DNA of 64,000 nucleotides, taken from the sequence record NC_028780.1. One strand, written 5' to 3'. Within the stretch, counting starts at the first letter, position 1. Each line of letters opens with the position of its first letter. The translations under genes were made by a program, and so were the position numbers. The DNA is from Escherichia phage slur07. Below the pieces are notes generated by a model. The model was not told the DNA's origin. It worked only from the letters and a program-made list of their open reading frames with translations, and ran no database searches. This document shows, piece after piece, positions 5,609 to 59,005 of the stretch.

Positions 5609-5638
5609 TAAAAATCCTTAGAGGGCCGAAGCCCTCTT

Positions 5639-5938: not shown

Positions 5939-8900
5939 ACGAATATAAACGTTTGGGGCATTTATATTCATGTCAGAATAAGTGTCACCCGTTTGGAATC
6001 TCATTCGGCGTGCGGCATTAGTAATGATATCAAGAACTCCGTCAGCGGATTGTTTAATTCCGGTATCATTATCACCAAATGCTATACTATTTCCACCAAG
6101 TGCGTTATTGATATTAATACCAAATGAATTTGTTTGATTAATACCAGCTACAGTAGCATTATTTACTACAAAGCGGTTAGCTCCACCTGGAGTTTTTTCA
6201 AAGTAAGCAATATAGTTAGTTTCATCTGCAATTTCAATGCGGTTACCGCGAGAAGCATCACCAGCATGAAATATTCTCATATTTCTCGGGTTAGCACCAG
6301 ACTTATCAAAGTTAATACTTCCATTATTTTTGATGTTAAGGCCATTATAAAACTCTGATACCCCAGAAACGCTCATAGAGTTTGAAATAGTTACTTTACC
6401 TGAATCGATATTGATAGAAAAAGGTCTCAAGCTATTATAAGAACCGGAGGCTTTAGTTTTATCAGTATCGGTATTTTTATCTGTTAATAATATATGGAAC
6501 GTAGTACCATCATTATAAAACAGAGCAGCTGCAGAGCCACTTTCGTCGCCGTTAGATTTGTGACGGAATCCTATAGTAGTATTTGCCACAAAAGTTGCAT
6601 TTGTAGAAATATTAGAACTACCTGCATCAAAAACGCCTGAGCTATTATTAAGAAGTTTAAAAACACGACCTTTAACAGTATCTACAGGAAGCTCTTCTAC
6701 TGGTGATTGTGTAGGCCCATATAATCCATGAACTACTACTGAAGCGTTTTCTGAAGTGCTATATTCTAATGTAAGTCTATTTAAATAAGTGCCACAATTA
6801 ATATAAACATCATACTCATCGCCTGAGGTATTAATATACGCAATATCTTTAATAGCATCTGTTTCGCGTTGCCATAAAACACCATTAATTCCTTTAGGGC
6901 TGTTATTACCTGAACGCAATACAATTTCATTAATTGTTGCTTGTCTAAAAGTACCAACGTTAAATCCAGAACCACCAGTAATTTTAAATTGAACTGTAGC
7001 CACACCTTGAGGCATAGTTACTGTTGCCAATTTATACCAACCGCTATCGACAGAATAATTAATCCAGCCGGTAGTTACTTTACGGTCTAAAGTAGTGTTT
7101 AAGTTAGCAAAATTACCAGAACCGTTGGTAATATTACCGTCAGTTCCTAGTTGGGCATTTCCGACTTTAAGAGGTTTACTGATTGACACGAAATTATCGC
7201 TTATAACAAGACCGTGTCCATAAGATTGACTATAAAGCGATAAATCACTTCCAGCGCCACCAAGACCAACATACCACGATCTAATTCCAGCTTTAGAACC
7301 TTGTAAATAATTAGCAGAAGAAGATGAAGGAGAATCTAGAGTAAGCGCTGCATTACGTTCATTAATAGTTACTGGACATATCATTTTAATAGTTTTAAGA
7401 CTATTACTTACTTGTAATAATCCTGTACCAGATCCAGAATCTCCTAAATGAACATCATGCGACATTTTAACTGTGCCGGTGTTCAGTTCTATTATCAATG
7501 GTCTAAGATTACTTATACCACCTGATTCTCCAGCATCTTTAAGAGTTGGAATAATATAAAAGTTACTTTCAGAACGACGGAAAATTGCGCCGTATTCAGC
7601 ATTCCAAATTCTTAATGCGTCAGCTGTTCCACCAATTTTTACTTGGCCTGTAATAGAAGAACCACCTTGGACAAACAAACCGTTAGACATAGTAACATTG
7701 CCACCAAAAGAACCTGTACCGGAGGCACTTATATTACCAAGGCCTATGATATGGCCTGTTTCGACAGTTCCGTTAAATTTAAAGTTAACCGGACCTACTG
7801 TTTGACCTGACGCAGGATTAGTACGTTGAGCGTAGAAATAATAACCTTGTGAATCTGAAACTTCGAATACAGTTTCTCTATTACCCTTTTCAGCGTTAAA
7901 TGAATTACCCCATGCTTTAATGGTTACGGTATTTTTATTCTGACCATTACGAGTACCTGCATCCCAGTTAATGGTTTTGGTACCATCTACACCGGAAGGA
8001 GCTTTAAACGATAAAGCATTAGTATTATCATCACCATTTAAAAACAAGCCCGTACGCATAGAAATACGCTGGGTGGAGTTAATTGTTCCGTCTGCTCTAA
8101 TAGCAACGCTATTAGAACCGGTTTTAATATCTAAAATGCCAGGCTCAACAAGAAGCCCATCACCCATACTAACGGACATACGACCTGTACCACGGAAATA
8201 GTGATACATCTTAGCATTGCTGCTATATCCGATATGAGTCTGTCCATCGCCGTTATTATTACCATCAACATCGGTACGCGCAGTAAACATTGCTTGGTTA
8301 TTATTTGGGAAATCCCAAGTAGAACCGGAATCTCGACTATAACCAACCATCAATTTTTTAGTACTATTAATACCATTATTCAAAATGGTAGCAGATGAAA
8401 TACCGTTAGCCATCAGGTCATAAACGCCATCGCGGACCCATTTAATACCGGTATCGTTATCGCCAATCGCAATACCAATAGAAATTGCAGAATCTAAAGG
8501 ATAACGACCATTTGTACCACTATCAGGAAGACCTACAGAAATAGATTTACCTGCAGTAATACGTCCAGAGGTATCAAACGCCCACTGGAAAGACGAAGGT
8601 CCTACACCAGTCCACCAAGAAATTTCTTGCGGCTTACCTTTTCGACAATCAACAATTTCATGGAAAATACTTGATGCGCTTGATGCACGTAATTTACGCA
8701 AATAGTTCAATCCATTTGTAGTATTGTCGGAACCATCGGCCGGTGGGTTATAAACCCAGGTAGGTAAAGAAACAATGTCATAACCCGCGTCATTATTCGG
8801 GATAAAGGTTTTCGTGCTTATGTTAATATTTTTTGTGTTGACACGTGGCGCAGAAACTACCCCAGTAGCCGAATTAATATTACCAGAAGCAGAAATATTT

Positions 8901-9442
8901 CCATCTGTTACTGTCAAACTTCCTGTATCAACAACAAATCCACCATCTCTACGAAATGTCCAGTATTTTGAAGTTCCCGATTCATTGATATAATGAATTT
9001 TAAAACTTCCTTCGTTTACTAGCGTACCAACAGAAAAAGTCCCATCTTTATAACGCTGTTTAATTAGCGGATGGTATTCTGAAGTAGAAGTAGTTGAACT
9101 TAAATCTGTAAAAATAGGGGCTTTATTTAGGTGTTGATTTGCCCAAGCGCCATTACCTGCAGTTTTAGGTAAAAATTCAATATATTTTCCTGCATAAACA
9201 AACTGATTTCCATTGAGATTATATGTACCGTTCTGTAAATAATCTCCAGTTTGAGTGATATTTCCACTGATATTACCGCCAGTGGAAATGCTTAAATCAA
9301 TGATATTTCCTGAATCATCTTTAGTAAAAAGTGTTCTATCTTTTAAGTTTATAGCCAATTCACCTTCGGCTAATACTGAAGCAGCAGGACGTGCACCTGC
9401 GGTTTTGCTTCTTTTAAATTGTATTTGTTTTAAAGTAGCCAT
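5639..9442 (-). CDS. 37: gp37 long-tail-fibre distal subunit
   Basis: 1267 aa; N-terminus MATLKQIQFKRSKTAGARPAASVLAEGELAINLKDRTLFTKDDSGNIIDL matches T4/T2 gp37; C-terminus differs from T4 (no His-box tip). Confidence 0.92.
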   Translation of the reverse strand: MATLKQIQFKRSKTAGARPAASVLAEGELAINLKDRTLFTKDDSGNIIDLSISTGGNISGNITQTGDYLQNGTYNLNGNQFVYAGKYIEFLPKTAGNGAWANQHLNKAPIFTDLSSTTSTSEYHPLIKQRYKDGTFSVGTLVNEGSFKIHYINESGTSKYWTFRRDGGFVVDTGSLTVTDGNISASGNINSATGVVSAPRVNTKNINISTKTFIPNNDAGYDIVSLPTWVYNPPADGSDNTTNGLNYLRKLRASSASSIFHEIVDCRKGKPQEISWWTGVGPSSFQWAFDTSGRITAGKSISVGLPDSGTNGRYPLDSAISIGIAIGDNDTGIKWVRDGVYDLMANGISSATILNNGINSTKKLMVGYSRDSGSTWDFPNNNQAMFTARTDVDGNNNGDGQTHIGYSSNAKMYHYFRGTGRMSVSMGDGLLVEPGILDIKTGSNSVAIRADGTINSTQRISMRTGLFLNGDDNTNALSFKAPSGVDGTKTINWDAGTRNGQNKNTVTIKAWGNSFNAEKGNRETVFEVSDSQGYYFYAQRTNPASGQTVGPVNFKFNGTVETGHIIGLGNISASGTGSFGGNVTMSNGLFVQGGSSITGQVKIGGTADALRIWNAEYGAIFRRSESNFYIIPTLKDAGESGGISNLRPLIIELNTGTVKMSHDVHLGDSGSGTGLLQVSNSLKTIKMICPVTINERNAALTLDSPSSSSANYLQGSKAGIRSWYVGLGGAGSDLSLYSQSYGHGLVISDNFVSISKPLKVGNAQLGTDGNITNGSGNFANLNTTLDRKVTTGWINYSVDSGWYKLATVTMPQGVATVQFKITGGSGFNVGTFRQATINEIVLRSGNNSPKGINGVLWQRETDAIKDIAYINTSGDEYDVYINCGTYLNRLTLEYSTSENASVVVHGLYGPTQSPVEELPVDTVKGRVFKLLNNSSGVFDAGSSNISTNATFVANTTIGFRHKSNGDESGSAAALFYNDGTTFHILLTDKNTDTDKTKASGSYNSLRPFSINIDSGKVTISNSMSVSGVSEFYNGLNIKNNGSINFDKSGANPRNMRIFHAGDASRGNRIEIADETNYIAYFEKTPGGANRFVVNNATVAGINQTNSFGININNALGGNSIAFGDNDTGIKQSADGVLDIITNAARRMRFQTGDTYSDMNINAPNVYIRSDIRLKSNFRPIENALEKVEQLDGLIYDKADYIGGEIVQTEAGIVAQTLQDVLPEAVREVEDIKGNKILTVSSQSQIALLVEAVKTLSSRVKELESKLM

Positions 9443-11302: not shown

Positions 11303-14300
11303 TTATTCAACCCATTCAAATTTAACAGTTTTATTCACTGGGTCAGGAATAATGCGAACATTACCAATTCGTAAGAAATCACGAATAGTAAGATTCCCCA
11401 TTGTAGCATTATCAGATGGTAAAGCACCGATATCAGATGGTTGAGGAGGGTTACCTCCGTCAAATACCTGAACAAAACTTGACCAAGAGTTTTTGGTTTT
11501 CTGCCATGTACGTGTCCAGCGAGTGGTACGCGCTTCTGGTGTCGTTGGATAAGTAATCCAATCTTGGTAAAGCGAATCAAGTGTGTTACCAAACTGTGTC
11601 AGTGTACCAGGAGATTTAACTTCTTCGCCACGTTCTAAGTATGGAAGCCCAGTCACTTCATTAGTTTTTTCAACCATTTTAAAATAACCTGGGAACTGGT
11701 TATAAGTGGCTGAATCGTTAATATCGATTGACCAGAATCCTACAGTATCAGATGTTGGCGCACGGGTATATAAATCAGATGTTTTAGTACCCTGAGAACG
11801 AATTCTCGAGTTAACAGTCAAACCACCTGAATTTATAGTAGCACCTTTGGCAATGATTAAGCTTTCACCAATTGTGACTTGACCGGATTGATTATTAATT
11901 GATAATGGACGTAATCCATTAAATCCACCGGTCTGATCACCAGATGCAGTAAGCATAAAATTCGTTACTGACCCATCATTGCGAACAATGAAACCATAAT
12001 TTCCGTTAATAGCACGGAAAGCATTTGCGTTTCGAGATATAATTTCACCAGTTGCTGTGACTGAACTACCGAATGTTGCTACACCATTCGCAGTCAATGT
12101 GCCTGAAGCATTCACATTTATCGGTGTTACTGTACCGTTGATATTAAATGTTATATTTCCAGCTTTATTGCGCTGGGAATAAAAATGACTAGACGTTTCA
12201 TCACCAACTTCAAATACAGTAGAACGTGTTGTATCTGAACCGCCGCCAAACTGATTTCCCCAAACTCTAATAGTCATCGTCTGTGCTGGGTTAGTTCCAG
12301 TTTGAGGTCCTTTCTCAAAAATCAGACGAGTTGCCGTTCCAGTATTAGAAATAGTTAATGTACTATTTGCCGAAACTGAACCACCAAACGCAGCAGTACT
12401 AGATGATACAAGAGGGGCACTCAGATTCGTTTGTTGGGTTAAGGTTAGTGAACCATTAACCGTCTGTGCAATATCCCTACGAATGAACTGAGATGAATCT
12501 AGACCATCCAATAAATTACTATCTACAGCTTTTGCTTTTAACGGCAAATAATTTGCTAATACACGGTTTAATTCATATGGTGATACTGCATAGCTATTTT
12601 TCTCATACAGTTCTAAATCTTGGGTAGAACCGACTGTATCATTACCAACGAATGTAATTGAACCAGATGAAGTTTTAACAAAACCTCTTATCGCAGTAGT
12701 AGCTGCCCAGGTAGGTTCACTCTGCACAATCCATTTTAAATTTTTTGGAGATACAGCAGTATTTGCTGACGTTCCAGTCACAGTTTCAGACTGAGTTGCA
12801 ACTTTAATAACACCTTCCTGTGATTCGGTAGATTTAGTACCTAAAAGCTTTTTAGGAGTTATTAAAACATTATCTAATGTTCCTGCAGCAGCTTCGACCT
12901 GTGTAGCTACACGAAGTGTACCACGCTGTGTCTCATTTGCTTCAAGAATATTAAGGGTATAATGGTCCCAGAGAGTTCCTGATTCAACTAATCCAGATAG
13001 AGCAACAACAGAAGTACGATCAGTACTATTAAATCTAGTTTTAATTTTTAATGGTGTAGAGATACGAGTATCGTCGACGCCTGCGTCGAATTCAACCTGT
13101 GTAGCAATTTCAGCTATACCACTTAAACCTTCAGTTGCTCTACGGTCATTTAAAGTTTTAGGAGTGACTGCACGAGTATAATCAGTTCCTGTATTAACTT
13201 CACTTTGCGTAGCAATTTCAATTAAACCAATTCTTGCATCAGTTGATGTCTTTTTGTGTAACGTTTCTGGCGTTACAACAGCATTTGCCCATCCTTCCTG
13301 ACTTTGTCCAGCAATTACTTCACTTTCAACTGCTAAAATTACCGCACCTTGCTGTGTTGGAGTAGCTTTATACTGATCCAAAGCTTTAGGTGAAACAACT
13401 AAATTATTAGTGTTTTTATTATAAACATTCGTACCATTTAATTCACGGCTAGAAGCTGGAGTAGCACCTGCAGTAGATACAAAAGTTACAATACCAGATA
13501 ATGATTCAGAACCTTGGCGAGCTTGAAGCTTTTTAGGAGTGATGATTGTAGTATCATCAGTACCTGTATTAGTTTCTTGCTGCGTAGCAATTTCAGCAAC
13601 ACCTCTACGAGTTTCTGTAGCAGTTCTTTCATTCAGCTTTTTAGGAGTAATGATAAGGTCATCTGCAAAAGAGAATGTGGTGTTCTGATTCACTTGAGCA
13701 GTAGTTGCTATTCTTGCAATACCTCTGCGAGTTTCAGTAGCAGTACGGTTAGCTAATGTTTCTGGAGTAATTGCTAATTCTTTTTGTGGAGAATTTTCTA
13801 AATCGACATTAGCTTGAGCTTGTGTAGCTAAAGCAATTACGCCTAATCTTGCTCTAGTAGAATCATTTAAAGAATCAACTCTTTCTACAGTTGGAACGTT
13901 TTGCTGTACAACCCAGTATTTTCCATCAGAATCTTCTATATAAGCAAGTTGTAAAACTGGAACATAATTAGTTTCACCGTTAAAAACTAATTCTTGAACT
14001 GTAACCCATTCAGCTTCAGGTGGATATTCTGAGCGTTTTGGGAATTGCAGTAATTGAACTGAAGAAGCAATTTTATCTTCGCCCGCAGCTTTGATTTTAA
14101 CTGTTTGTCCTTTTCTCATGTAATTCATGGAAATTTTAACAGTATCACCAACAGAAATATTAGTTGGAAGCTGAAGCTCAATTGTTTGAGTTGTTCCGTT
14201 ATTCGCACCAAATACCATGACTTCTTCGTTTGGACGAATATTAGAATTAGTCGTTATAATGCGTAAACGTGCTTTACTATCCCCGTCAAACAATCTCCAC

Positions 14301-15172
14301 AATTTCTCATTATCATCAAACATCAAGAAACCGTCAATTGATGTACGGCCTTCAATGGAATGAGTTCCAACTTCTTGTACTGAAGTCGTTTCATCGTATG
14401 TAGTAACAATTGTATGATAAAGTGGATTCAGTTTATCTAAATCAACGAAATTAATAATATCTCCATGATTAGCAAATCTTGGAAGTTTAATATTTATCGG
14501 TGCGGCAGAAGTAAATCTACGCACGATAAAATCGTTTGATTGCGCCTGATAGAGACTCGCAGGCGTTACAACTATAGCTTCTCTACTATAATCAGCAACA
14601 TACATTTGCCACAGACGATTACTAAAAATTAAAACTAGCTGTGACTTTGGATGAGTCATTAGTACTGAACGTACTTGTTCACCTCTAAAGTTTACAATAC
14701 TTTGTACTGGAGCTACAATTAAAACTTGGTTAACTCCAGGTTTTCCTCCAATATCTTGGAGAACGATAGTATCTCCATCAATTGGAGAAGATGGTAAAGT
14801 AAACGTGATGTCATTTCCAGTTGCAGTATTAACCGAAATAGCTTCACCGGATTTTAATTGATATGAACCAGATGAAACCGTAATCCAGTTTGCGTCTGTA
14901 CGTAATGCTCTCCAGCGCCCGCTATTAAAAGCTCCTGCCGGTTTTGGAATATCATTTATAGCAGCCCAAAAGCGGTTATCATAAATGATTACAAAATCTT
15001 TTAAATATCCACGAGTTGGATCATATTGTTGAACTGTGTTTTCTTGAATTAAGTAATCAACGTTAACACCGTCAGTTCCTACGGTACGATCAGCTAAAGC
15101 TACGTTGATTATTTTATCGCCACCTGCGTCCAGACCGTCTTCTGCTCTGAACTTTCTTTTAATCTCGGCCAT
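11303..15172 (-). CDS. 34: gp34 long-tail-fibre proximal subunit
   Basis: 1289 aa, same length as T4 gp34; N-terminus MAEIKRKFRAEDGLDAGGDKIINVALADR. Confidence 0.93.
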   Translation of the reverse strand: MAEIKRKFRAEDGLDAGGDKIINVALADRTVGTDGVNVDYLIQENTVQQYDPTRGYLKDFVIIYDNRFWAAINDIPKPAGAFNSGRWRALRTDANWITVSSGSYQLKSGEAISVNTATGNDITFTLPSSPIDGDTIVLQDIGGKPGVNQVLIVAPVQSIVNFRGEQVRSVLMTHPKSQLVLIFSNRLWQMYVADYSREAIVVTPASLYQAQSNDFIVRRFTSAAPINIKLPRFANHGDIINFVDLDKLNPLYHTIVTTYDETTSVQEVGTHSIEGRTSIDGFLMFDDNEKLWRLFDGDSKARLRIITTNSNIRPNEEVMVFGANNGTTQTIELQLPTNISVGDTVKISMNYMRKGQTVKIKAAGEDKIASSVQLLQFPKRSEYPPEAEWVTVQELVFNGETNYVPVLQLAYIEDSDGKYWVVQQNVPTVERVDSLNDSTRARLGVIALATQAQANVDLENSPQKELAITPETLANRTATETRRGIARIATTAQVNQNTTFSFADDLIITPKKLNERTATETRRGVAEIATQQETNTGTDDTTIITPKKLQARQGSESLSGIVTFVSTAGATPASSRELNGTNVYNKNTNNLVVSPKALDQYKATPTQQGAVILAVESEVIAGQSQEGWANAVVTPETLHKKTSTDARIGLIEIATQSEVNTGTDYTRAVTPKTLNDRRATEGLSGIAEIATQVEFDAGVDDTRISTPLKIKTRFNSTDRTSVVALSGLVESGTLWDHYTLNILEANETQRGTLRVATQVEAAAGTLDNVLITPKKLLGTKSTESQEGVIKVATQSETVTGTSANTAVSPKNLKWIVQSEPTWAATTAIRGFVKTSSGSITFVGNDTVGSTQDLELYEKNSYAVSPYELNRVLANYLPLKAKAVDSNLLDGLDSSQFIRRDIAQTVNGSLTLTQQTNLSAPLVSSSTAAFGGSVSANSTLTISNTGTATRLIFEKGPQTGTNPAQTMTIRVWGNQFGGGSDTTRSTVFEVGDETSSHFYSQRNKAGNITFNINGTVTPINVNASGTLTANGVATFGSSVTATGEIISRNANAFRAINGNYGFIVRNDGSVTNFMLTASGDQTGGFNGLRPLSINNQSGQVTIGESLIIAKGATINSGGLTVNSRIRSQGTKTSDLYTRAPTSDTVGFWSIDINDSATYNQFPGYFKMVEKTNEVTGLPYLERGEEVKSPGTLTQFGNTLDSLYQDWITYPTTPEARTTRWTRTWQKTKNSWSSFVQVFDGGNPPQPSDIGALPSDNATMGNLTIRDFLRIGNVRIIPDPVNKTVKFEWVE
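12805..13765 (-). repeat. in-frame tandem peptide repeats within gp34 (approximate bounds)
   Basis: At least six repeat units of type (I/V)TP(E/K)(T/K)L..R.ATE..G(I/V)..IAT in the translated protein. Confidence 0.45.
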
Positions 15173-17438: not shown

Positions 17439-17469
17439 TTGCTTATTATAAATAGATTATAATTATCTC

Positions 17470-17537
17470 ACTGACCAGCTATGAGGTCATACATCGTCAT
17501 AGCACCAACTGTTAATTAAATTAAAAAGGAAATAAAA
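17470..17537 (+). promoter_or_regulatory. gene 32 translational operator region (leader with A/U-rich gp32-binding tract)
   Basis: Leader ...GTTAATTAAATTAAAAAGGAAATAAAAATG directly upstream of gene 32; in T4 this leader is the autoregulatory operator. Confidence 0.5.
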
Positions 17538-19560: not shown

Positions 19561-20387
<827 letters not shown>

Positions 20388-20406: not shown

Positions 20407-20754
20407 ATGAATTTTAATTATTACCCTATTCTATTAGAAAAAGACACGAAACAACCAAAATGGCAGGGTCCTCAGTTTATTAAAGGTGTCTATCAATTAG
20501 TAGTTCCTAAAGATAAGATTTATAGTAGTTGTTTTACTGAATCCGCTTGCAGTATTTTCGGTAATAGTTCTCCGTATTGGAATTTTGACATAAAGTTGGA
20601 TAGAAATATCGATATTTGGTTGAAAGCTATGGATATTGGTAATATCACGTTTGATGAGAATAATTATCATATTATTGGTCGCTTTTCCAAACGCGGTAAA
20701 GAATTATATTTCACGCCTGAAATTGAGAGAAAATTTGATGCTAAACCGTATTGA
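20407..20754 (+). CDS. hypothetical protein inserted between frd and td
   Basis: 115-aa ORF with no counterpart I can place in T4, where frd and td abut. Confidence 0.55.
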   Translation: MNFNYYPILLEKDTKQPKWQGPQFIKGVYQLVVPKDKIYSSCFTESACSIFGNSSPYWNFDIKLDRNIDIWLKAMDIGNITFDENNYHIIGRFSKRGKELYFTPEIERKFDAKPY

Positions 20755-20799: not shown

Positions 20800-21660
20800 A
20801 TGAAACAATACCAAGATTTAATTAAAGACATTTTTGAAAATGGCTATGAAACCGATGACCGAACGGGCACAGGAACAATTGCTTTGTTCGGTACTAAATT
20901 ACGCTGGGATTTAAGTAAAGGTTTTCCTGCAGTAACAACTAAGAAGCTCGCCTGGAATGCATGCATTGCTGAGCTTTTATGGTTTATTTCCGGTTCTACC
21001 AATGTTAATGATTTACGTCTTCGCACTCATGGTAGTCTTATTCAAGGCAAAACTATTTGGGACGATAACTATGAAAACCAGGCTAAAGACCTAGGATATC
21101 ATAGTGGTGAACTTGGTCCTATATACGGTAAACAATGGCGTGATTTCGGTGGTGTGGATCAATTAGTTGAAACTATTGATCGTATTAAAAAATTACCAAC
21201 TGATCGACGTCAAATCGTTTCAGCATGGAATCCAGCTGAAATCAATCAAATGGCATTACCGCCCTGTCATATGTTCTATCAGTTTAATGTGCGTAATGGT
21301 TATCTTGATTTACAATGGTACCAAAGAAGTGTAGATGTTTTCTTGGGATTGCCATTCAACATTGCCTCGTACGCTGCCTTGACGCATATTGTGGCTAAGA
21401 TGTGTAATCTTATCCCAGGAGATTTGATATTTTCTGGTGGTAATACTCACATCTATATGAATCATACTGAGCAATGTAAAGAAATTTTACGTCGTGAGCC
21501 TAAAGAACTATGTGAACTTAAAATTGATTGGCCTATAGAGTTTGGAAATTGTGACACCGAAACACAGCTTTACTGGTTAACTGAATACATGAAACCGAAA
21601 GATTTTATCCTTGAAAATTATGAATCGCATCCAGCAATTAAAGGGAAAATGGCAATATGA
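20800..21660 (+). CDS. td: thymidylate synthase, intron-less
   Basis: 286 aa continuous ORF matching T4 Td exons joined; active-site region PPCHMFYQF present; no group I intron. Confidence 0.93.
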
Positions 21661-24455: not shown

Positions 24456-24506
24456 TATAATTTGACTCATGGACGAGTCACTATCTATTAACTAAGTGGA
24501 AAATTT

Positions 24507-25685
24507 ATGAGCACAGTTTTTAATACAAATCCAGTTGATGTTTTAAAAGAACCTATGTTTTTTGGTTCAGGTCTTGGTATTGCGCGTTATGATATTCAAC
24601 GCCATAAAGTTTTTGAAGATTTAACCGAAAAGCAATTATCATTTTTCTGGCGTCCTGAAGAAGTAAACTTGATGATGGATGCTGCACAGTTTAATAAGCT
24701 TCCTCAGTATCAGCAAAATATTTTTACTAATAATCTGAAGTATCAATCACTTTTGGATAGCATTCAGGGTCGTGCGCCGTCTGCTGTACTTATGTCATTA
24801 ATTTCAGACCCAAGCCTTGATACATGGGTTGCTACGTGGACTTTTAGTGAAACTATTCACTCTCGTTCATATACACATATCATGCGAAATCTTTATACTG
24901 ATCCATCGAAGGTATTTGATGAGATTGTATTAGATGAAGCTATTATGAAACGTGCTGAATCCATTGGACGTTATTATGATGATGTTCTGACTAAAACTCG
25001 TTATTGGGAAAACGCTAAAGCTGATATCGAATACCAAAAAGAAATTAATGCAGACGAAGATGTTATTGAAGATGCTATTGAGCATGAGACATATTGGAAG
25101 CGTGAGCTAATGAAATCTCTTTACCTCTGTTTGCATGTAATCAACGCATTGGAAGCTATTCGTTTTTATGTATCTTTCGCATGTACCTTTAACTTCCATA
25201 AGAACATGGAAATCATGGAAGGTAATGCCAAGATTATGAAGTTCATTGCACGTGATGAGCAGCTTCACCTTAAAGGCACTCAATATATTATTCGTCAACT
25301 TCAACTTGGCACTGATGGCGATGAATGGGTTAAAATTGCTCAAGAGTGTGAACAAGAAGCAGTTGATATTTTCATGGAAGTTAACCGCCAAGAAAAAGAT
25401 TGGGCAGTTCATTTATTTAAAGATGGCGATGTTCCTGGATTAAATACAAATAGCATGTGGAGCTTTATTGATTACTTAACTGTATCTCGTATGAAACAGT
25501 GTGGTCTTCCATGCCCGATTACCGATGCTCCGGTTAAACATCCATATCCTTGGATTCGTGAATATCTTAATTCTGATAATGTTCAATCCGCGCCACAAGA
25601 AGTAGAACTGTCATCTTACCTTGTTGCACAGATTGATAATGATGTTGATGATAAAGTTATGATGAGTTTTAAAAAATACTTTTAA
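24507..25685 (+). CDS. nrdB: aerobic ribonucleotide reductase small subunit, intron-less
   Basis: 392 aa continuous ORF matching T4 NrdB; no intron or intron endonuclease. Confidence 0.93.
   Translation: MSTVFNTNPVDVLKEPMFFGSGLGIARYDIQRHKVFEDLTEKQLSFFWRPEEVNLMMDAAQFNKLPQYQQNIFTNNLKYQSLLDSIQGRAPSAVLMSLISDPSLDTWVATWTFSETIHSRSYTHIMRNLYTDPSKVFDEIVLDEAIMKRAESIGRYYDDVLTKTRYWENAKADIEYQKEINADEDVIEDAIEHETYWKRELMKSLYLCLHVINALEAIRFYVSFACTFNFHKNMEIMEGNAKIMKFIARDEQLHLKGTQYIIRQLQLGTDGDEWVKIAQECEQEAVDIFMEVNRQEKDWAVHLFKDGDVPGLNTNSMWSFIDYLTVSRMKQCGLPCPITDAPVKHPYPWIREYLNSDNVQSAPQEVELSSYLVAQIDNDVDDKVMMSFKKYF

Positions 25686-28731: not shown

Positions 28732-28735
<4 letters not shown>
28505..28735 (+). CDS. 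hypothetical protein
   Basis: 76-aa ORF translationally coupled to neighbours. Confidence 0.5.
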
Positions 28736-29938
<1,203 letters not shown>

Positions 29939-30607: not shown

Positions 30608-30669
30608 TAGTTTACTTTACAGTAGAGTTGTGATATTATGGCTCTACCAAACAAATGAGGAAATTGAAA

Positions 30670-31197
30670 ATGAGCGAATGGTTTGAAGAAGATAAGGTTT
30701 ATCGCTTTAAAGCTGGATATAAAGATATTTTTAATGAAACTTGCGGGGCTAATAAACGAATTGCTCAGTTTATTGGGGAAAATTCATTTAAAGTAAAAAT
30801 TGATCCCGCGAAAAATGTTATTAGCATTAAACGTGAAATTGACGATTACTGGTATAAAGCTGTTGATGTAATGGGTGAATGCTATAAAGATAGCCCATTA
30901 TTTTCAATTACTTATATGTCAGAATATTATTTTTTCGAAGAAGTTCAAAAAGATGATTCTGTCAGTAAATTTGAAATTAAAACTGATAAAGAAATTAAAT
31001 GGAAAGTAGTAGGTATTACTGGTTGTATGTTTTATATCTATGCTCAAACTGATACGAAGGAAGAAGCTAAAAAGAAAGCTCTAGAATATCTTGAAGAGTA
31101 TGAAGAAGGCCCGGTAATGATTACTCAAGATGCTGAATTAGTTTCTGTCAAATTAGTTAAAAACGTTGAAAGTAAGGAGCTGGGATCAACATGCTAA
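30670..31197 (+). CDS. hypothetical protein
   Basis: ORF with GAGGA about 10 nt before ATG 30670 (MSEWFEEDKVYRF...). Confidence 0.55.
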   Translation: MSEWFEEDKVYRFKAGYKDIFNETCGANKRIAQFIGENSFKVKIDPAKNVISIKREIDDYWYKAVDVMGECYKDSPLFSITYMSEYYFFEEVQKDDSVSKFEIKTDKEIKWKVVGITGCMFYIYAQTDTKEEAKKKALEYLEEYEEGPVMITQDAELVSVKLVKNVESKELGSTC

Positions 31198-38968: not shown

Positions 38969-41059
38969 ATGATGGAACTCATTACAGAATTATTTGACGA
39001 AGATACTACTCTTCCGATTACAAACTTAAATCCAAAGAAGAAAATACCACAAATTTTTTCAGTTCATGTTGATGATGCAATTGAACAACCAGGCTTTCGT
39101 TTATGTACCTATACATCTGGAGGTGATACTAATCGCGATTTAAAAATGGGCGATAAAATGATGCATATCGTTCCTTTTACATTAACTGCAAAGGGGTCAA
39201 TTGCTAAATTAAAGGGTCTTGGACCGAGTCCTATTAATTACATCAATTCAGTATTTACCGTAGCAATGCAAACAATGAAACAGTATAAAATTGATGCATG
39301 TATGCTACGCATTCTTAAGTCTAAAACCGCCGGTCAAGCTCGACAAATTCAACTTATTGCTGATAGACTTATCCGTAGTCGTTCAGGTGGCAGATACGTC
39401 CTTCTTAAGGAACTCTGGGATTACGATAAAAAGTATGCATATATTCTTATACATCGTAAAAACGTATCACTAGAAGACATTCCAGGAGTTCCAGAAATTA
39501 GTACTGAACTCTTTACTAAGGTTGAATCGAAGGTCGGTGATGTTTATATCAATAAAGATACTGGAGCCCAAGTAACTAAAAATGAGGCAATTGCAGCATC
39601 AATTGCACAAGAAAATGATAAACGTTCTGACCAAGCCGTAATCGTTAAAGTTAAAATTTCCCGTAGAGCAATTGCGCAAAGTCAATCATTGGAATCTTCT
39701 AGATTTGAAAGTGAATTATTCCAGAAGTATGAATCTACCGCAGCTAATTTCAATAAACCTGCTACCGCTCCTTTAATTCCCGAAGCAGAAGAAATGAAGC
39801 TTGGAATTAATTCATTAGCTTCTAAAACTAAGGCAGCAAAAATTATTGCTGAAGGAACTGCAGATGAACTTCATTATGACTATAAATTCTTTTCAAAAAG
39901 TGAGGTTAATGAAGTTTCTGAAAAAATTAAAGATGTAATTCTTAATGCGATTAAAAATGAACCAACTACTTCAATAAAATGTTTAGAGAAATACGCAGCA
40001 GCTGTTAATCAACTCTTTGAAGAATATAAAGATAATTGGCTTGATAAACATAATAAAACTCGTAAAGGGCAGCCAGATGAAGTCTGGGAAGAAATAACTA
40101 AAAATGCCTGGAATGCAGCAAAAACTAAATTCCTCAAAAGAATGATTTATAGTTTTTCTGGAATTGGTGCAGGTCCAATGATTGATATTACTATTGCCCG
40201 TGATGGTTCTAAATATACTCCATCACAAAAGCGCGGCATTAGAGAGTATTGTGGTTCAGGATATACTGACATCAATAATCTTCTTTTAGGTCGTTACAAT
40301 CCAGAACGATATGATGTAATGAGTGAAAAAGAAATTGAATCTGCTATAAATAATTTAGATTCAGCTTTTGAAAATGGTGACCGCATACCGGAAGGCATTA
40401 CAGTTTATCGTGCTCAAAGTATGACTGCTCCTATATACGAAGCGCTAGTTAAAAATAAAGTGTTCTATTTCAGAAATTTTGTATCTACTTCTTTAACTCC
40501 TATCATTTTTGGGCGTTTTGGAATTACACATGCTGGTATTGGTCTTTTAGAACCAGAAGCTCGTAATGAATTGACAGTTGATAAAAATGAAGAAGGAATA
40601 ACTATTAATCCAAACGAAATAAGAGCGTATAAAGAAAATCCTGAATACGTTAAAGTTCAAATAGGATGGGCAATTGATGGAGCTCATAAAGTTAATGTTG
40701 TATATCCAGGAAGTCTAGGAATAGCAACAGAAGCTGAAGTTATTCTACCGCGTGGATTGATGGTCAAAGTTAATAAAATAACTGATGCTTCTAATAATGA
40801 CGGAACCACGTCTAATAATACAAAACTCATTCAAGCTGAAGTTATGACCACCGAAGAACTCACCGAATCGGTAATCTATGACGGAGACCGTTTAATGGAA
40901 ACCGGCGAAGTAGTTGCAATGACAGGTGATATAGAAGATAGAGTTGACTTTGCATCATTTGTTTCATCAAATGTTAAACAGAAAGTAGAATCATCTCTTG
41001 GAATTATTGCGTCTTGCATAGATATTACAAACATGCCTTACAAGTTCGTTCAAGGATAA
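38969..41059 (+). CDS. alt: Alt ADP-ribosyltransferase (injected, modifies host RNA polymerase)
   Basis: 696 aa; N-terminus MELITELFDEDTTLPITNL matches T4 Alt; catalytic motifs YRAQS (Arg), FVSTS (STS), TEAEVILPRG (E-x-E). Confidence 0.9.
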   Translation: MMELITELFDEDTTLPITNLNPKKKIPQIFSVHVDDAIEQPGFRLCTYTSGGDTNRDLKMGDKMMHIVPFTLTAKGSIAKLKGLGPSPINYINSVFTVAMQTMKQYKIDACMLRILKSKTAGQARQIQLIADRLIRSRSGGRYVLLKELWDYDKKYAYILIHRKNVSLEDIPGVPEISTELFTKVESKVGDVYINKDTGAQVTKNEAIAASIAQENDKRSDQAVIVKVKISRRAIAQSQSLESSRFESELFQKYESTAANFNKPATAPLIPEAEEMKLGINSLASKTKAAKIIAEGTADELHYDYKFFSKSEVNEVSEKIKDVILNAIKNEPTTSIKCLEKYAAAVNQLFEEYKDNWLDKHNKTRKGQPDEVWEEITKNAWNAAKTKFLKRMIYSFSGIGAGPMIDITIARDGSKYTPSQKRGIREYCGSGYTDINNLLLGRYNPERYDVMSEKEIESAINNLDSAFENGDRIPEGITVYRAQSMTAPIYEALVKNKVFYFRNFVSTSLTPIIFGRFGITHAGIGLLEPEARNELTVDKNEEGITINPNEIRAYKENPEYVKVQIGWAIDGAHKVNVVYPGSLGIATEAEVILPRGLMVKVNKITDASNNDGTTSNNTKLIQAEVMTTEELTESVIYDGDRLMETGEVVAMTGDIEDRVDFASFVSSNVKQKVESSLGIIASCIDITNMPYKFVQG

Positions 41060-41062
41060 ATC

Positions 41063-43120
41063 ATGGAACTTATTACAGAATTATTTGACGGCGCTTCGGC
41101 GCCGGTTGTTAACTTAAATCCTAAGCATAAAATACCACAAATTTTTGCTATCCAAGCCGGCGAAGAAAGCGTGCTTCCTGGATTTAGATTTTGTACATAC
41201 ACCTCTGGTGGTGATACAAATAAAAACGTTAAGCCAGGCGATAAAATGATGCATATCGTAATGATAGGTGTCAATGAGAAACTATCATTAGTTAAGCTTA
41301 AAAACTTGGGTGGAAATCCAATTGGTGTCATTAATGCCGTTTTTGATACTGCTCTTCAAACAATGAAACAGTATAAAATCGACGCATGCCTATTCCGCGT
41401 ACTAAAGAGTAAAACAAATGGCGCAGCTCGTCAAATGCAAGTTATTGCTGACCGTTTAGTACGTACTAAAGGAGCAGGTCGATATGTTCTCTTAAAGGAA
41501 ATCTGGGACTATGATAAGAAATATGCATATATTATGGTTTACCGTAAAAATGCCAATTTAGAAGACATTCCAGGTGTACCTCCTATTTCAACTGAGTTAT
41601 TCACAAAAGTTGAATCAAAGGTTGGTGATGTTTATGTAGACGTTAAAACAGGTAATGCTGTTCCTAAAGCTGTCGCTGTTGCTGCTTCTATTGCTTTAGA
41701 AAATGATAAGCGCACTGATCAAGCTGTTATTCAGAAAACTAAAATTAGTCGTCGATTAGCAGCACAAGCTCAATATTCTACTGTTGATGCTTCACTTCAG
41801 GGTGATAGCTTCGCTGCCAAGAAATATCAAGAGTTTGAATCTAAAGTTCCGGTATATAAAGCAGAAGGACCAATGAACTCTGGCGTTATCCAGATTGGTT
41901 CAAACTTCAGCAAAGGAGCTATCGGTGGTATGAGAAGTGCTTCTCGTTTTAAATCTAATGATTATGAACTAGAAAGTTTCCGAAATCATATTGCATTGAC
42001 CCATGCACGTTTACGCGATCCATCTATCAAGCTGCAGAGCGATATAACATATCAAGGTTCTCAAGAATATTTAAAGAATAAAGAATTCTTTGATTATAAA
42101 ACTGATAAAATTTTAAGCGATCTTGCTGACATTAATATTTCTAATAGCTTTGATGTTATTAAGAAAATTATCAATGATTTAGTTAAAGATTCTAAAGCTA
42201 CATCAGATGAAAAGACAGCTATTATTCAATTTGTAATGAATGGCATTTATAAATTGATTAATGAATCTGCTGCTCAGGCATATGAATACGCAAGCACCGA
42301 AGTAACTCCAAAAGGACTGACTCAGGCTGAATCTGATGTAATTGAAGATTATTGTGCAGATTCATATGTTGAAATGAACTCGTTCCTTTTGGGTAAACCA
42401 GATTCTACCCGTGAAGAATACATGGAAAGAGCTATTAATCACATCGAGACGTTAGATTCTGCCTTTGCCAAAGGATCAGTTCTTCCTCCAGGAACTACAC
42501 TTTACCGTGGACAAGAAGTTACCTTTAAAACTTTGCGTCATAACATTGAAAACAAAATGTTCTATTTCAAGAACTTCGTATCGACATCACTTAAACCAAA
42601 TATCTTCGGTGAGCATGGTAAAAACTATATGGCTCTAGATGATTCCGGCGCAGTATTTTCTGGCGAAGGAGAAGGTTCCGTTGATGCAGAAGATTTAATG
42701 CATATGGGTAGTCATTCTACATATGCCAATGAAGATGCTGAAACTAGCGTAGGTATGGTAATTAAAGGGGCTGAGCGAATCAAAGTTATCGTTCCAGGTC
42801 ATTTATCAGGATTTCCATCAGAAGCTGAAGTTATTCTACCACGTGGAATTTTACTGAAGATTAATAAAGTAAGTACGTACTTTATGAAAGAAACTGCTTA
42901 TAACAAGTATCTAATCGAAGGTACAATCGTTCCTCCTTCTGAACAATTAGAGGAATCGGTATATGATGGCGACCATTTAATGGAAACTGGTGAAGTTCGT
43001 CCAATGGCTGGATTTAATCAATTCCTTGTAGAAGAATCAAAAGAAGAGGAAAACGAAGTTTCTCAAATCTTGGCTTCTTTGGTTAACATCAACGGAATGT
43101 CTAAAAAGTTCAAAATGTAG
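41063..43120 (+). CDS. Alt paralogue (second ADP-ribosyltransferase)
   Basis: 685 aa; same fold signature with YRGQ, FVSTS, SEAEVILPRG; conserved N-terminal third, divergent central region. Confidence 0.85.
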   Translation: MELITELFDGASAPVVNLNPKHKIPQIFAIQAGEESVLPGFRFCTYTSGGDTNKNVKPGDKMMHIVMIGVNEKLSLVKLKNLGGNPIGVINAVFDTALQTMKQYKIDACLFRVLKSKTNGAARQMQVIADRLVRTKGAGRYVLLKEIWDYDKKYAYIMVYRKNANLEDIPGVPPISTELFTKVESKVGDVYVDVKTGNAVPKAVAVAASIALENDKRTDQAVIQKTKISRRLAAQAQYSTVDASLQGDSFAAKKYQEFESKVPVYKAEGPMNSGVIQIGSNFSKGAIGGMRSASRFKSNDYELESFRNHIALTHARLRDPSIKLQSDITYQGSQEYLKNKEFFDYKTDKILSDLADINISNSFDVIKKIINDLVKDSKATSDEKTAIIQFVMNGIYKLINESAAQAYEYASTEVTPKGLTQAESDVIEDYCADSYVEMNSFLLGKPDSTREEYMERAINHIETLDSAFAKGSVLPPGTTLYRGQEVTFKTLRHNIENKMFYFKNFVSTSLKPNIFGEHGKNYMALDDSGAVFSGEGEGSVDAEDLMHMGSHSTYANEDAETSVGMVIKGAERIKVIVPGHLSGFPSEAEVILPRGILLKINKVSTYFMKETAYNKYLIEGTIVPPSEQLEESVYDGDHLMETGEVRPMAGFNQFLVEESKEEENEVSQILASLVNINGMSKKFKM

Positions 43121-51769: not shown

Positions 51770-52012
51770 TTAAAAGCTTTCTTCTACTTCATCGTCTGAA
51801 TCTTCTAATTCAGCTCTTTTTCCTGCCAAAGCATCTCTCACAGAGATGTCATCAGTATCTTTTAATTCAGTTTCTTTGACTCTTTTCTTATAATAAGCTT
51901 CAAGTTCTTCTAAACCTTCTAATGTTTGACAAGAGGCAATTTTACCCATAAATTCATCAATAGAAGCTTCATAAAGAAATTGTTTAAATTCTAGTAACAT
52001 CTTTTTCTCCAA
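51770..52012 (-). CDS. uvsW.1: UvsW.1
   Basis: 80-aa acidic ORF immediately downstream of uvsW. Confidence 0.6.
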   Translation of the reverse strand: MEKKMLLEFKQFLYEASIDEFMGKIASCQTLEGLEELEAYYKKRVKETELKDTDDISVRDALAGKRAELEDSDDEVEESF

Positions 52013-52025
52013 AGGGCCGAAGCCC

Positions 52026-53534
52026 TTATAAATTAACTGTTTTCATTACGTAATTAAATTTTTCATCTGCGTAGCGCTGAATACGATCAATGCCGTGTTT
52101 TAAAAGATAGTTCAAATGAACATATTTCTTTTTAGTATTAGCAGATTTTGGCTTAACACCACAATCATCTATGAGGTCCCAGACTATTGCTATTGTCTTA
52201 GAACCATGCTTACGTAATACACGACCGATTGTTTGTAATACAATGATTTTTGATTTAACACCGTGCGCTAAAACAACGTGATGCAGATTTTTAACTGAAA
52301 TACCAGTAGAAAATACACCATAACTAGCTACTATAATTATTCCTTTACCATTTTCAGCTAAGGTTTTCATTATATTGCGGGTTTCGGTATCAACTTCCCC
52401 TGATACGTAATAAACTTTATCGTATTCATTTTTAATTAAATCGAAAATAGCTTTACCATGTGATACATGTTTAAACATGACAAAAGCGTTTTCATCTTTT
52501 TGCGCAAGCTTAATAGCTAATTTAGCGATCCATTTATTTCTTTTACTAAGCCCAGTAATAATTTTTATTTCTTCTTGATAAGTTTTTCCCTTTAATTTAG
52601 TAGTGAACTCATCTGGATAGCGAAGAAAAATACTATTAATTTTTAGCTCAGTTACTTGTCCATCTTCCATTAATTTAGAAGTCGTTACTGGCTTAAATAT
52701 TTCACCAAACATTCCAACATACTGCATGATATTAGCTTTGCCATCACGTAATGAACCTGATAGACCAAATTTAAACATACAGTTATTTAATCCTGATATG
52801 ATAGATGAAATACTTTTTCCTGTAGCAAGATGGCATTCATCATTCATCATCATTCCAAACTGTGAGAACCATTCTTTTGGTTGTTTTACTACAGTTTGCC
52901 ATGTACCAACAACGACTGGTGCATCATTTTTATATTTATCATCTTTTGATGCTCCGCCACCAATTTTCTTTATCATTGCATGGCTGAATAAACGATAGTC
53001 AACGAAGTCATCAGCCATCTGAGTTGTCAGAGCAGTTGTTGGAACAATGATAAGAATTTTACCTTCATAATTTTCCAAATAATACCGAGCAAGCAAAGCT
53101 TGAATTAACGATTTACCAGCGGATGTTGGAAGATTAAGAATTCTACGACGATTAACTAATCCTTCGAACACTGCATCTTTTTGATACCAGTGTGGTTCAA
53201 TTCTTTTATTTCCTGAATAGATTTCTAATTTAGAAAGCCATTCATCAAAATCTTTTCTTGATAATTCTTCTTTTTCGTTAATTTGTGGGTCAATCCAGGC
53301 TTTATAGCCAAAGTTATCACAGAACTTTTTAATTTGCCCGACTAAGCCGAATGGAAGAAGACGATTATAATCTAAAAGACGGATTCGTCCATCCCAGTTG
53401 CCATATCTGAAGCGAGGGTTAAATCTATATCCATCGGCCTCAAACGAAAAGAAATCTCTTAATTCGTGGAACGTGCTCTCTTCACAATCGATGCGTACAT
53501 GACTGAAGTCGTGAAAATGTACTTTAATATCCAT
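52026..53534 (-). CDS. uvsW: UvsW helicase (SF2)
   Basis: 502 aa; Walker A SAGKS and DECH box; matches T4 UvsW. Confidence 0.93.
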   Translation of the reverse strand: MDIKVHFHDFSHVRIDCEESTFHELRDFFSFEADGYRFNPRFRYGNWDGRIRLLDYNRLLPFGLVGQIKKFCDNFGYKAWIDPQINEKEELSRKDFDEWLSKLEIYSGNKRIEPHWYQKDAVFEGLVNRRRILNLPTSAGKSLIQALLARYYLENYEGKILIIVPTTALTTQMADDFVDYRLFSHAMIKKIGGGASKDDKYKNDAPVVVGTWQTVVKQPKEWFSQFGMMMNDECHLATGKSISSIISGLNNCMFKFGLSGSLRDGKANIMQYVGMFGEIFKPVTTSKLMEDGQVTELKINSIFLRYPDEFTTKLKGKTYQEEIKIITGLSKRNKWIAKLAIKLAQKDENAFVMFKHVSHGKAIFDLIKNEYDKVYYVSGEVDTETRNIMKTLAENGKGIIIVASYGVFSTGISVKNLHHVVLAHGVKSKIIVLQTIGRVLRKHGSKTIAIVWDLIDDCGVKPKSANTKKKYVHLNYLLKHGIDRIQRYADEKFNYVMKTVNL

Positions 53535-53536
53535 AA

Positions 53537-54154
53537 TTATGCCTTACTAAATTTGCCTTTAGAATCTCTTTTCATGAGACGACCTTTAATAAATCCGTCG
53601 GGAATAATACCGTCTGGTTGTATTAATTTATTTATTGCACCATTATTGACCCAAAAAGTTCCTGTGGTAGTCGGTTTGACTTTACATCCTTTTCTGGACT
53701 TTCTATTAGGATGAACCATCCCTTTTACAAATCCTTCTGGAACAAGTTCTCCAGGTTTAATAAAAATATTTTTAGTTCCATTAGTGTAACAAGTTGTACC
53801 TAATACCGTGCCCGGTGAGTTTTCAAATCTCTTAGCGGAAGATTCTTTCATCTTTGCTATAACCTCTGTAGTCATAACAATTCCACCAATTCCACCAGGT
53901 TTCATATTATAATAATTTTTGCTTTTTATTATTTCAGGAGTTATAATTTCTTCTTCATACATGTACGCTTCTTCGGAAGTTTTAAACTCTTTTAGTATTG
54001 TTCTAGAGAAATTGTTTTCACCATATTTCTTTATAGCCTGCTGAATTGCCTTACCGGAACCAAGGTAACCATCATTCAAGTCATCAGTAGAGTGTTTTCC
54101 TATATACTTTTTACCATTTATTAGATTTGTTGTTTCATATACAAAGTGGTACAT
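53537..54154 (-). CDS. segE: free-standing GIY-YIG homing endonuclease, SegE-like
   Basis: 205 aa; N-terminal GIY-YIG module HFVYETTNLINGKKYIGKH; located between uvsW and inh/hoc. Confidence 0.8.
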   Translation of the reverse strand: MYHFVYETTNLINGKKYIGKHSTDDLNDGYLGSGKAIQQAIKKYGENNFSRTILKEFKTSEEAYMYEEEIITPEIIKSKNYYNMKPGGIGGIVMTTEVIAKMKESSAKRFENSPGTVLGTTCYTNGTKNIFIKPGELVPEGFVKGMVHPNRKSRKGCKVKPTTTGTFWVNNGAINKLIQPDGIIPDGFIKGRLMKRDSKGKFSKA

Positions 54155-54181
54155 ACTATTTTCCGAGTAATAAATATATCT

Positions 54182-54189
54182 ATATTTAT
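54182..54189 (-). promoter_or_regulatory. candidate late promoter (TATAAATA) upstream of segE
   Basis: Minus-strand TATAAATA about 28 nt upstream of segE start. Confidence 0.35.
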
Positions 54190-54203
54190 ACTGAGGAAAT
54201 ATT

Positions 54204-54884
54204 ATGATAGATAAAGATTATATTGCAGAGCTGAAGGCTCTTGATGATAATAAAGAAGCTAAAGCTAAACTAGCTGAATATGCTGAACAGTTTGGTATAA
54301 AGGTCAAAAAGAATAAATCTTTTGATAATATCGTTGTTGATATTGAAGAAGCCCTCCAGAAGCTCGCTAGTGAACCTATGCCAGAGACTGATGGGTTATC
54401 TATTAAAGACTTAATTGATGCTGCTGATGCCGCAGAGGGATTAAAATATGACGATGAAGAAGTCAATCCAGAAGCAGCACTTCTGATTGATTCTCCAGTT
54501 AAATCTGACATTAAAATTGAAGTAGTAGAAACGGATAAAATTCCTGAAAATACCGATGTTTTGATTGAAGATACTCCTTTTGTTGAAGAAAAATTCGAAC
54601 AAGCTGTAGCTGAGATTATTGAATCTGAAAAGCCGTCTGTATTTACTCTTCCGGAAAACTTTAGCCCGAATCTTCAGTTGATTGGAAAAAATCCAGGATT
54701 CTGCACTGTTCCTTGGTGGATTTATCAATGGATTGCTGAAACTCCGGATTGGAAATCTCACCCAACAAGTTTTGAGCATGCGTCAGCACACCAAACTTTA
54801 TTTAGCTTAATTTATTACATTAACCGTGACGGATCAGTTTTAATTCGTGAAACACGCAATTCTTCTTTCGTAACATTAAAATAA
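54204..54884 (+). CDS. inh: Inh-like protein (inhibitor of prohead protease), acidic
   Basis: 226 aa directly upstream of hoc as in T4; call rests mainly on position and length. Confidence 0.55.
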   Translation: MIDKDYIAELKALDDNKEAKAKLAEYAEQFGIKVKKNKSFDNIVVDIEEALQKLASEPMPETDGLSIKDLIDAADAAEGLKYDDEEVNPEAALLIDSPVKSDIKIEVVETDKIPENTDVLIEDTPFVEEKFEQAVAEIIESEKPSVFTLPENFSPNLQLIGKNPGFCTVPWWIYQWIAETPDWKSHPTSFEHASAHQTLFSLIYYINRDGSVLIRETRNSSFVTLK

Positions 54885-58922: not shown

Positions 58923-58949
58923 TGCGCTTTCCTTTCAGTTTATATGATT

Positions 58950-58957
58950 TATTTATA
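58950..58957 (-). promoter_or_regulatory. late promoter (TATAAATA) for gene 24
   Basis: Minus-strand TATAAATA about 28 nt upstream of gene 24 start. Confidence 0.5.
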
Positions 58958-58974
58958 CCATAAAAACAACTAAA

Positions 58975-58990
58975 GGGACCCGAAGGTCCC
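58975..58990 (-). terminator. terminator hairpin downstream of gene 23 (UUCG loop)
   Basis: Minus strand reads GGGACC-UUCG-GGUCCC followed by a U-rich tract. Confidence 0.6.
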
Positions 58991-59005
58991 TTAAATCGTC
59001 AAAGA

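Follow-up and report, generated by a model that had tools for sequence, protein, structure and literature searches.

The segE gene was located at 53537..54154 on the minus strand of the window, by which we mean the whole 64-kb stretch of DNA analysed in this study. It forms an uninterrupted ORF with an ATG start and encodes a free-standing GIY-YIG homing endonuclease of 205 aa (plus stop codon). On one side lies the uvsW helicase gene (52026..53534, minus strand), a 502-aa ORF whose ATG is found 2 nt past the segE stop; on the other side lies inh, formerly hoc.1 (54204..54884, plus strand), a 226-aa ORF that diverges from segE and has hoc as its next neighbour, the names being those of the T4 annotation. 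The position between inh (hoc.1) and uvsW and the co-orientation with uvsW are the same as in T4, and the insertion site of segE is tabulated as inh/uvsW (PMC2988022). The span 53537-54189 delimited in the first-pass annotation comprises the segE ORF and 35 nt upstream of it, which hold the sequence TATAAATA. Beyond the start of uvsW, the interval 51770-53534 (minus strand) contains the 502-aa uvsW gene and then a separate small ORF, uvsW.1, and other relatives are likewise annotated with two genes; the T4 RefSeq record gives a single uvsW of 587 aa, with sequence discrepancies flagged in that section.

The gene is the already known segE of T4, intact and in its canonical place. Alignment with T4 SegE (NP_049795), which had been proposed as a check, gave 202 identical residues of 205 without gaps, and the two genes were identical at 610 of 618 nt (8 nt differences). 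The three substitutions relative to T4 are L75I, D97E and K120T, none of them at a family-conserved position in the 64-sequence alignment described below. The similarity extends beyond the gene: a 901-nt alignment covering segE and both flanks showed 99% identity to T4, the 49-bp inh-segE intergenic region was 100% identical, and the junction between the segE stop and the uvsW start has the same form, TAA-TT-ATG (GCATAATTATGGAT). The segE gene of phage Aplg8 is 100% identical at the nucleotide level to the one described here. Neither a frameshift nor an internal stop nor a truncation was found in the ORF 53537..54154. Among profile libraries, SegE matched the Pfam family SegE_GIY-YIG (PF19835) with 37.6 bits (cut-off 25) and phrog_314, 'homing endonuclease', with E = 9e-44, and its score against the generic GIY-YIG family PF01541 was 20.9 bits, just under the cut-off of 22.6. 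The claim that a 205-aa segE-type GIY-YIG gene sits between uvsW and inh is thus borne out by the identity to T4 SegE, the PF19835 match and the flanking genes.

The N-terminal part of SegE (about aa 1-92; 53879..54154, minus strand) was assigned as the GIY-YIG catalytic domain by an AlphaFold2 model, Foldseek and hhalign. The model has a mean pLDDT of 85, rising to 96-98 over aa 1-80, and its predicted N-terminal order b1-b2-a1-b3-a2-a3, a three-stranded sheet with flanking helices, corresponds to the fold of the I-TevI catalytic domain. The top three PDB matches in Foldseek were all the I-TevI catalytic domain (1mk0, 1ln0), with a probability of 1.00 and a target TM of 0.59-0.62; the E-values of these matches were modest (5e-3) despite that probability. 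A sequence-only search of the PDB with SegE returned no GIY-YIG entry, I-TevI included, and the fold search on the predicted structure was required. In the hhalign profile-to-sequence alignment, Y6, Y17, E67 and N83 of SegE pair with Y6, Y17, E75 and N90 of I-TevI, and the motifs of SegE read FVY6 and KYIG17-19. The search for homologues found 1401 proteins, of which 63 full-length sequences were aligned together with the query (64 sequences). Conservation was complete for Y6, Y17 and N83 (64/64 each) and nearly so for H21 (63/64) and E67 (62/64), and the invariant positions were Y6, Y17, G19, D28, Y30, G32-S33-G34, K43, G45, N83 and G87-G88.

Frameshifts or the loss of the catalytic Arg and Glu had been named in advance as grounds for rejecting the assignment. 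The ORF is intact and E67, aligned to E75 of I-TevI, is retained, so this part of the test went in favour of segE. The part concerning Arg turned out to be poorly posed, with no residue aligned to R27 of I-TevI anywhere in the family: both the MAFFT and the hhalign alignments leave I-TevI residues 23-31, R27 among them, opposite a gap of 9 residues in SegE and in its family, and no invariant Arg was found in the GIY-YIG domain across the 64 sequences. The region of the gap corresponds to SegE aa 20-34, at about 54053-54097 (minus strand). The missing R27 equivalent is no sign of inactivation, because the whole family, including the reportedly active T4 SegE, shares the gap. The invariant or near-invariant basic or polar residues of the domain in the 64-sequence alignment are K15, H21 and K43, any of which may be a candidate substitute for the canonical Arg in the SegE family. 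No published statement on an Arg equivalent in Seg proteins was found in PMC2330249 or PMC1564403.

The C-terminal half of SegE (about aa 93-205; 53540..53878, minus strand) is the presumed DNA-binding region, assigned from the model, a PHROG match and the analogy with I-TevI. In the model, a helix spans 96-112 and beta-hairpins span 122-131 and 167-178, and the linker at 149-160 is of low confidence. An HNH endonuclease PHROG aligns through its C-terminus with residues 154-199, and NUMOD3 (PF07460) is present in many SegE homologues. Two similar motifs of the form [YW]xxNGxxNxxIxPxxxxPxGF[VI]KG were recognised by eye at aa 121-145 and 165-191. A DNA-binding role is presumed for this half because of its analogy to I-TevI.

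The first-pass annotation had suggested a possible late promoter upstream of segE, and this was confirmed in one respect and modified in another. An exact match to the T4 late-promoter consensus, TATAAATA, lies at 54183..54190 on the minus strand, 29 nt upstream of the segE ATG. The motif occurs 15 times in the window, compared with 9 expected, and on its own it is weak evidence. The promoter is not specific to segE: TATAAATA is also found upstream of uvsW in the segE-less phages T2, RB32, Sf21 and UFV11, where its sequence and its position relative to inh are as in T4. All six phages compared share, without a single difference, the intergenic sequence on the inh side as far as '...CAGTATAAATATAGATATATTTATTAC', and in the segE-less phages the uvsW start codon follows 13 nt after '...CAGTATAAATATAGATATATTTATTAC'. 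Because the identical inh-side sequence directly precedes uvsW in phages without segE, the promoter is probably older than the insertion and belongs to uvsW. We read TATAAATA here as an ancestral uvsW late promoter that would now drive both segE and uvsW. The segE gene is interposed between this promoter and uvsW, takes the place of the 13-nt leader and stops 2 nt before the uvsW ATG, and no further copy of TATAAATA that could serve uvsW as a second exact late promoter was found inside the segE ORF; a scan for sigma-70-type promoters gave fewer hits than the chance expectation. In agreement with this reading, a review places the promoter from which segE is transcribed in non-coding DNA ahead of the ORF (PMC2988022). 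For annotation, the upstream TATAAATA is best understood as a shared uvsW promoter.

Comparison of the uvsW-hoc interval among relatives, another check that had been proposed, gave a clear-cut distribution of occupied and empty sites. The segE gene is present in 157 of 508 related records matching the locus; in the remaining records the locus is exactly 616 bp shorter with clean junctions, and these empty alleles hold a 13-nt alternative spacer in place of segE. The flanks are 98-99.6% identical to the window in segE-containing records as against 93-96% in empty alleles. In the alignment of six phages, occupied and empty alleles do not diverge on the inh side. Towards uvsW, the initial 138 nt of that gene (53397..53534, minus strand) form a recoded patch linked to segE, recognised by comparison with T2 and coinciding with the reported SegE target region in segE-less phages. 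This patch differs from T2 at 35 of its 138 nt, compared with 13 differences over the next 560 nt, and from T4 at 1 nt. Relative to T2, 21 of its codon changes are synonymous and 5 are non-synonymous, and one codon fewer is present; UvsW of segE-less phages has 503 aa, with one extra codon after the ATG.

The linkage between the patch and segE was examined in 50,697 phage records with a synthetic query that joined the empty junction to the patch from this window. The complete patch was found only together with segE. All matches of at least 99% to the synthetic query were in two pieces, i.e. segE-containing, and no segE-less allele with a complete T4-type patch, as expected from precise loss of segE, was found; the best single-piece match reached 96.8%. 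The best single-piece matches came from the segE-less phages UFV05, 06, 09, 10, 11 and BCH953P4, whose patch is chimeric: roughly its first 85 nt are T2-type and the rest is T4-type (for UFV11, record positions 500-850 were compared with 53397-53534). These chimeric empty alleles are, from their sequence, probable natural recombinants within the segE-linked patch.

The literature on T4 provides a functional frame for these boundaries. PMC2330249 and PMC2988022, both citing Kadyrov et al. 1997, describe T4 SegE as an active site-specific endonuclease whose cut in the segE-less phage RB30 lies in the hoc.1-uvsW region, where uvsW has its 5' end. They also report that in T4 x RB30 crosses segE homing was almost 100% efficient and the flanks were co-converted (PMC2330249, PMC2988022). 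Because the divergence sits where this literature puts the SegE cut, we read the patch, by position, as the carrier's putatively cleavage-resistant version of the target, which would travel with segE.

The genomic background of the locus is that of a T4-like phage. Megablast placed the whole 64-kb stretch in Tequatrovirus (T4-like phages of Escherichia, Shigella and Yersinia), and BLAST against T4 positions 100000-168903 showed T4 165.0 to 101.5 kb to be colinear with the window in reverse orientation, mostly at 94-98% identity. The parts of the window lacking a T4 counterpart are gp37/gp38, which are T2-type, an additional copy of alt and several small ORFs. The adhesin genes (4817-9442, minus strand) encode gp37 of 1267 aa and gp38 of 263 aa, of the T2 type, compared with T4 sizes of 1026 aa and 183 aa, and their nucleotide similarity to T4 is almost nil. 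Two tandem full-length genes for Alt-like ADP-ribosyltransferases of 696 and 685 aa occupy 38969-43120 (plus strand); of these, the second shares only about 68-80% identity with T4 alt, and the T4 counterpart of the pair consists of one alt gene and the fragments alt.-1 and alt.-2. Two further plus-strand ORFs of unknown function lack a T4 counterpart: a 100-aa ORF at 28732-29034 (phrog_2364) between pseT.1 and pseT, and a 180-aa ORF at 30655-31197 (phrog_3710, distantly Frd.2-like) in the cd.3/cd.2 interval.

A 115-aa ORF (phrog_1928) was found at 20407..20754 (plus strand) between frd and td, two genes whose T4 versions overlap. A FelixPlatter gene with 100% identity to it bears the annotation 'putative homing endonuclease'. 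That label was rejected: neither a nuclease motif nor a profile hit was found in the ORF, and 553 phage records have it in synteny. Identity among these syntenic copies goes as low as 31%, in Klebsiella phages, which argues for a conserved rather than a sporadic mobile gene. The ORF probably represents a conserved gene, of unknown function, lost from T4. No nuclease family was detected by Pfam, PHROGs or NCBIfam in this or the other ORFs that lack a T4 counterpart (28732..29034, 30655..31197, 19561..19806, the second alt and others). Since the stretches without T4 counterpart contain no nuclease family and the label of the 115-aa ORF was rejected, segE is the sole recognisable homing endonuclease gene within the 64 kb.

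The first-pass annotation had also listed several T4 mobile elements as absent, and every one of these absences was upheld. The td gene (20800..21660, plus strand) is a single 286-aa ORF, with an uninterrupted intron site at td nt 549/550 (21348..21349), and the 1017 nt that lie between the joined T4 td exons have no counterpart in the window by BLAST against T4. The nrdB gene (24507..25685, plus strand) is likewise a single ORF, of 392 aa, its intron site (25182..25183) being uninterrupted and T4 139056->138457 (598 nt) missing. Neither I-TevI nor I-TevIII gave a tblastn match, which agrees with both genes being intron-less. No mobE was present between nrdA and nrdB, where the empty mobE/nrdB.1 site is a 51-bp spacer (24456..24506, plus strand) with T4 140420->139719 missing and MobE gave no tblastn match. 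The absence of a seg gene after gene 32 was verified by the 99-bp spacer between genes 59 and 32 (17439..17537, plus strand), an empty segG site with TATAAATA at 17447-17454 and with T4 148542->147918 missing, and SegG gave no tblastn match. Between genes 23 and 24, an 83-bp spacer (58923..59005, minus strand) marks the empty segD site, with T4 107311->106521 missing. In tblastn searches with T4 SegD, SegG, MobE, I-TevI, I-TevIII and NrdB.1, the only match, apart from SegE itself, was that of SegD to the segE locus, as a paralogue. Remnants of the five absent elements were sought by colinear BLAST, tblastn and inspection of the ORF structure, and none was found. The window can therefore be labelled with confidence as segE-positive and as lacking the td intron, the nrdB intron, mobE, segG and segD. 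In the nrdA-nrdB spacer of vB_Eco_CP and FelixPlatter, a different gene, a 213-aa 'homing endonuclease', is found (14128-14769 and 2321-2962 in the respective records). Judging from these gene contents, the spacer is a hotspot used by differing endonuclease genes.

It had further been suggested that the pattern of empty sites indicates which loci can be invaded in mixed infections. Emptiness by itself is insufficient to show this. In td, the CNNNG motif for cleavage (CAAAG, -27..-23) sits where it does in T4, and the last 17 nt ahead of the intron insertion point are kept; 10 of 30 positions downstream differ from T4, and td overall is 77% identical. In nrdB, the 137 nt upstream of the intron site are 73.7% identical to T4, as against 97.2% for the 503 nt downstream; a 12-nt insertion is located at 25034-25045, and the identity step lies at the intron site (region 25046-25183, plus strand). 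Divergence of this kind in td and nrdB could have an effect on recognition and likewise on the homologous repair on which homing depends. The identity step in nrdB and the divergence in td look like recombination boundaries at endonuclease or intron target sites.

It is textbook knowledge that T-even phages vary in the homing endonuclease genes they carry, and the present pattern fits within this variation. About 500-550 related genomes matched the segE locus, and an element was counted as carried when a record held at least 80% of the T4 element. By this measure segE was carried by 157-167 records of roughly 510 (about 31%), I-TevI by 187, segG by 142, segD by 53 and full-length mobE by 21, so that each of these elements occurred in a minority of relatives and in varying combinations. 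Phaginator carries none of the six elements, segE included; vB_Eco_CP and FelixPlatter carry segE and the different endonuclease between nrdA and nrdB; and RB3 to RB9 have the segE-positive, segD-negative state in common. No exact twin of the six-locus pattern was found among the three relatives examined (Phaginator, vB_Eco_CP and FelixPlatter). If the loci were independent, the frequencies of the single elements would lead one to expect this combination in roughly 10% of Tequatrovirus genomes. T4, with 15 endonuclease genes, is an outlier, and most relatives carry few, according to a 2010 review (PMC2988022). The presences and absences behind the 'distinct pattern' of carriage proposed in the first reading are real, but the pattern is not distinctive, each element being a minority trait and T4 an outlier. 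It is an unremarkable sample of a mosaic that is already well known. Little is new in it: a known segE is in its canonical place, and the absences are typical for the group.

The location, target and homing behaviour of segE were described for T4, together with the gene itself, in the 1990s. Taking the evidence from the locus together, we are highly confident that the gene is a functional orthologue of T4 segE, a free-standing GIY-YIG homing endonuclease, and judged by its sequence it is almost certainly active. Late in infection, segE would be transcribed from the TATAAATA promoter in the inh-uvsW interval on a single message with uvsW, and the product would combine the N-terminal GIY-YIG nuclease domain with the C-terminal DNA-binding region, an architecture that the fold comparison supports in part. 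By extension from the T4 x RB30 crosses, co-infection with a segE-less relative would lead SegE to introduce a double-strand break near the 5' end of the uvsW gene of that phage. The break would be resected and then repaired by homologous recombination templated by the segE-carrying genome, and the repair would copy segE and the adjacent recoded uvsW start to the recipient, i.e. intronless homing with co-conversion of the flank. The uvsW start of the carrier would itself be a poor SegE substrate, because 35 of its 138 nt differ from the empty allele, mostly synonymously; the alignment and the published T4 biochemistry both point to this form of self-protection.

Homing endonuclease genes pass through a life cycle of invasion, fixation, degeneration and loss, and an intact-looking segE could be functionally decaying, i.e. 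fixed, free of selection for cleavage and heading towards loss. The three substitutions L75I, D97E and K120T are of unknown effect, and degenerate endonucleases do occur in the group, T4 I-TevIII being annotated as defective. All of these substitutions are, however, conservative or at variable positions, the ORF has no frameshift, stop or truncation, and identity among the segE copies of about 157 records is 98-100%, the Aplg8 allele being 100% identical at the nucleotide level. About two-thirds of the relatives still have empty sites, so selection for homing would persist, and we regard decay as very improbable. The least probable account, in our view, is that segE persists mainly as part of uvsW expression rather than by homing, which would draw on the shared promoter that predates segE, on the stop-to-start spacing of 2 nt and on the precise deletion that would be needed to keep uvsW expressed, since segE lies between promoter and uvsW and ends 2 nt from its start, but which accounts for retention and not for origin or spread, is compatible with homing, and is at odds with the empty alleles, which to judge from their sequence express uvsW without segE from the same promoter.

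Two further proposals may be put forward. The mobile unit may be a cassette made up of segE and the 138-nt synonymously recoded start of uvsW, which would serve as a portable immunity patch; this cassette lies downstream of uvsW's own late promoter. The donor of the patch was presumably a more distant phage, because the patch is about 25% divergent from the empty allele. Separately, the SegE subfamily may carry out GIY-YIG chemistry without the canonical Arg, relying instead on another conserved residue (K43, K15 or H21). We consider it unlikely that these proposals are correct. If the cassette proposal is true, the chimeric alleles of UFV05-11 and BCH953P4 could be used to map the minimal resistance determinant. 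The patch illustrates cleanly the influence of free-standing endonucleases on local mosaicism and on the boundaries of exchange in phage genomes, and its complete linkage with segE across about 500 genomes adds to this picture of mosaicism.

I-TevI, the endonuclease of the T4 td intron, is the structural archetype of the GIY-YIG homing endonucleases. It is the best structural match to the N-terminus of SegE, the Tyr-Tyr-Glu-Asn positions are common to both, and both are bipartite, with an N-terminal nuclease and a C-terminal DNA-binding region that in SegE is presumed. The two enzymes are only about 20-25% identical, and they differ in that SegE is free-standing whereas I-TevI is intron-encoded, and in that the R27 segment (residues 23-31) is gapped in the SegE family. 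No zinc finger or helix-turn-helix of the I-TevI type was detected in SegE. Intronless homing and marker exclusion are also mediated by T4 SegD, SegG, SegF and SegB, Seg endonucleases that are likewise free-standing; they resemble SegE in enzyme class and lifestyle, differ from it in insertion sites and targets, and are all absent from the window. The closest paralogue in the region is SegD of T4, whose overall identity to SegE is 36%, rising to 46% within the N-terminal 95 aa. SegE also differs from I-TevI in its target, which is in the gene next to segE and not at the point where segE itself is inserted (PMC2988022). The closest known system is T4 segE itself. The background described here differs from that of T4 in lacking segD, segG, mobE, the td intron and the nrdB intron and in having a T2-type gp37/gp38, whereas the segE locus resembles that of T4 in protein length (205 aa), amino acid identity (98.5%), neighbouring genes, orientation, upstream region with TATAAATA, junction with uvsW and recoded uvsW patch.
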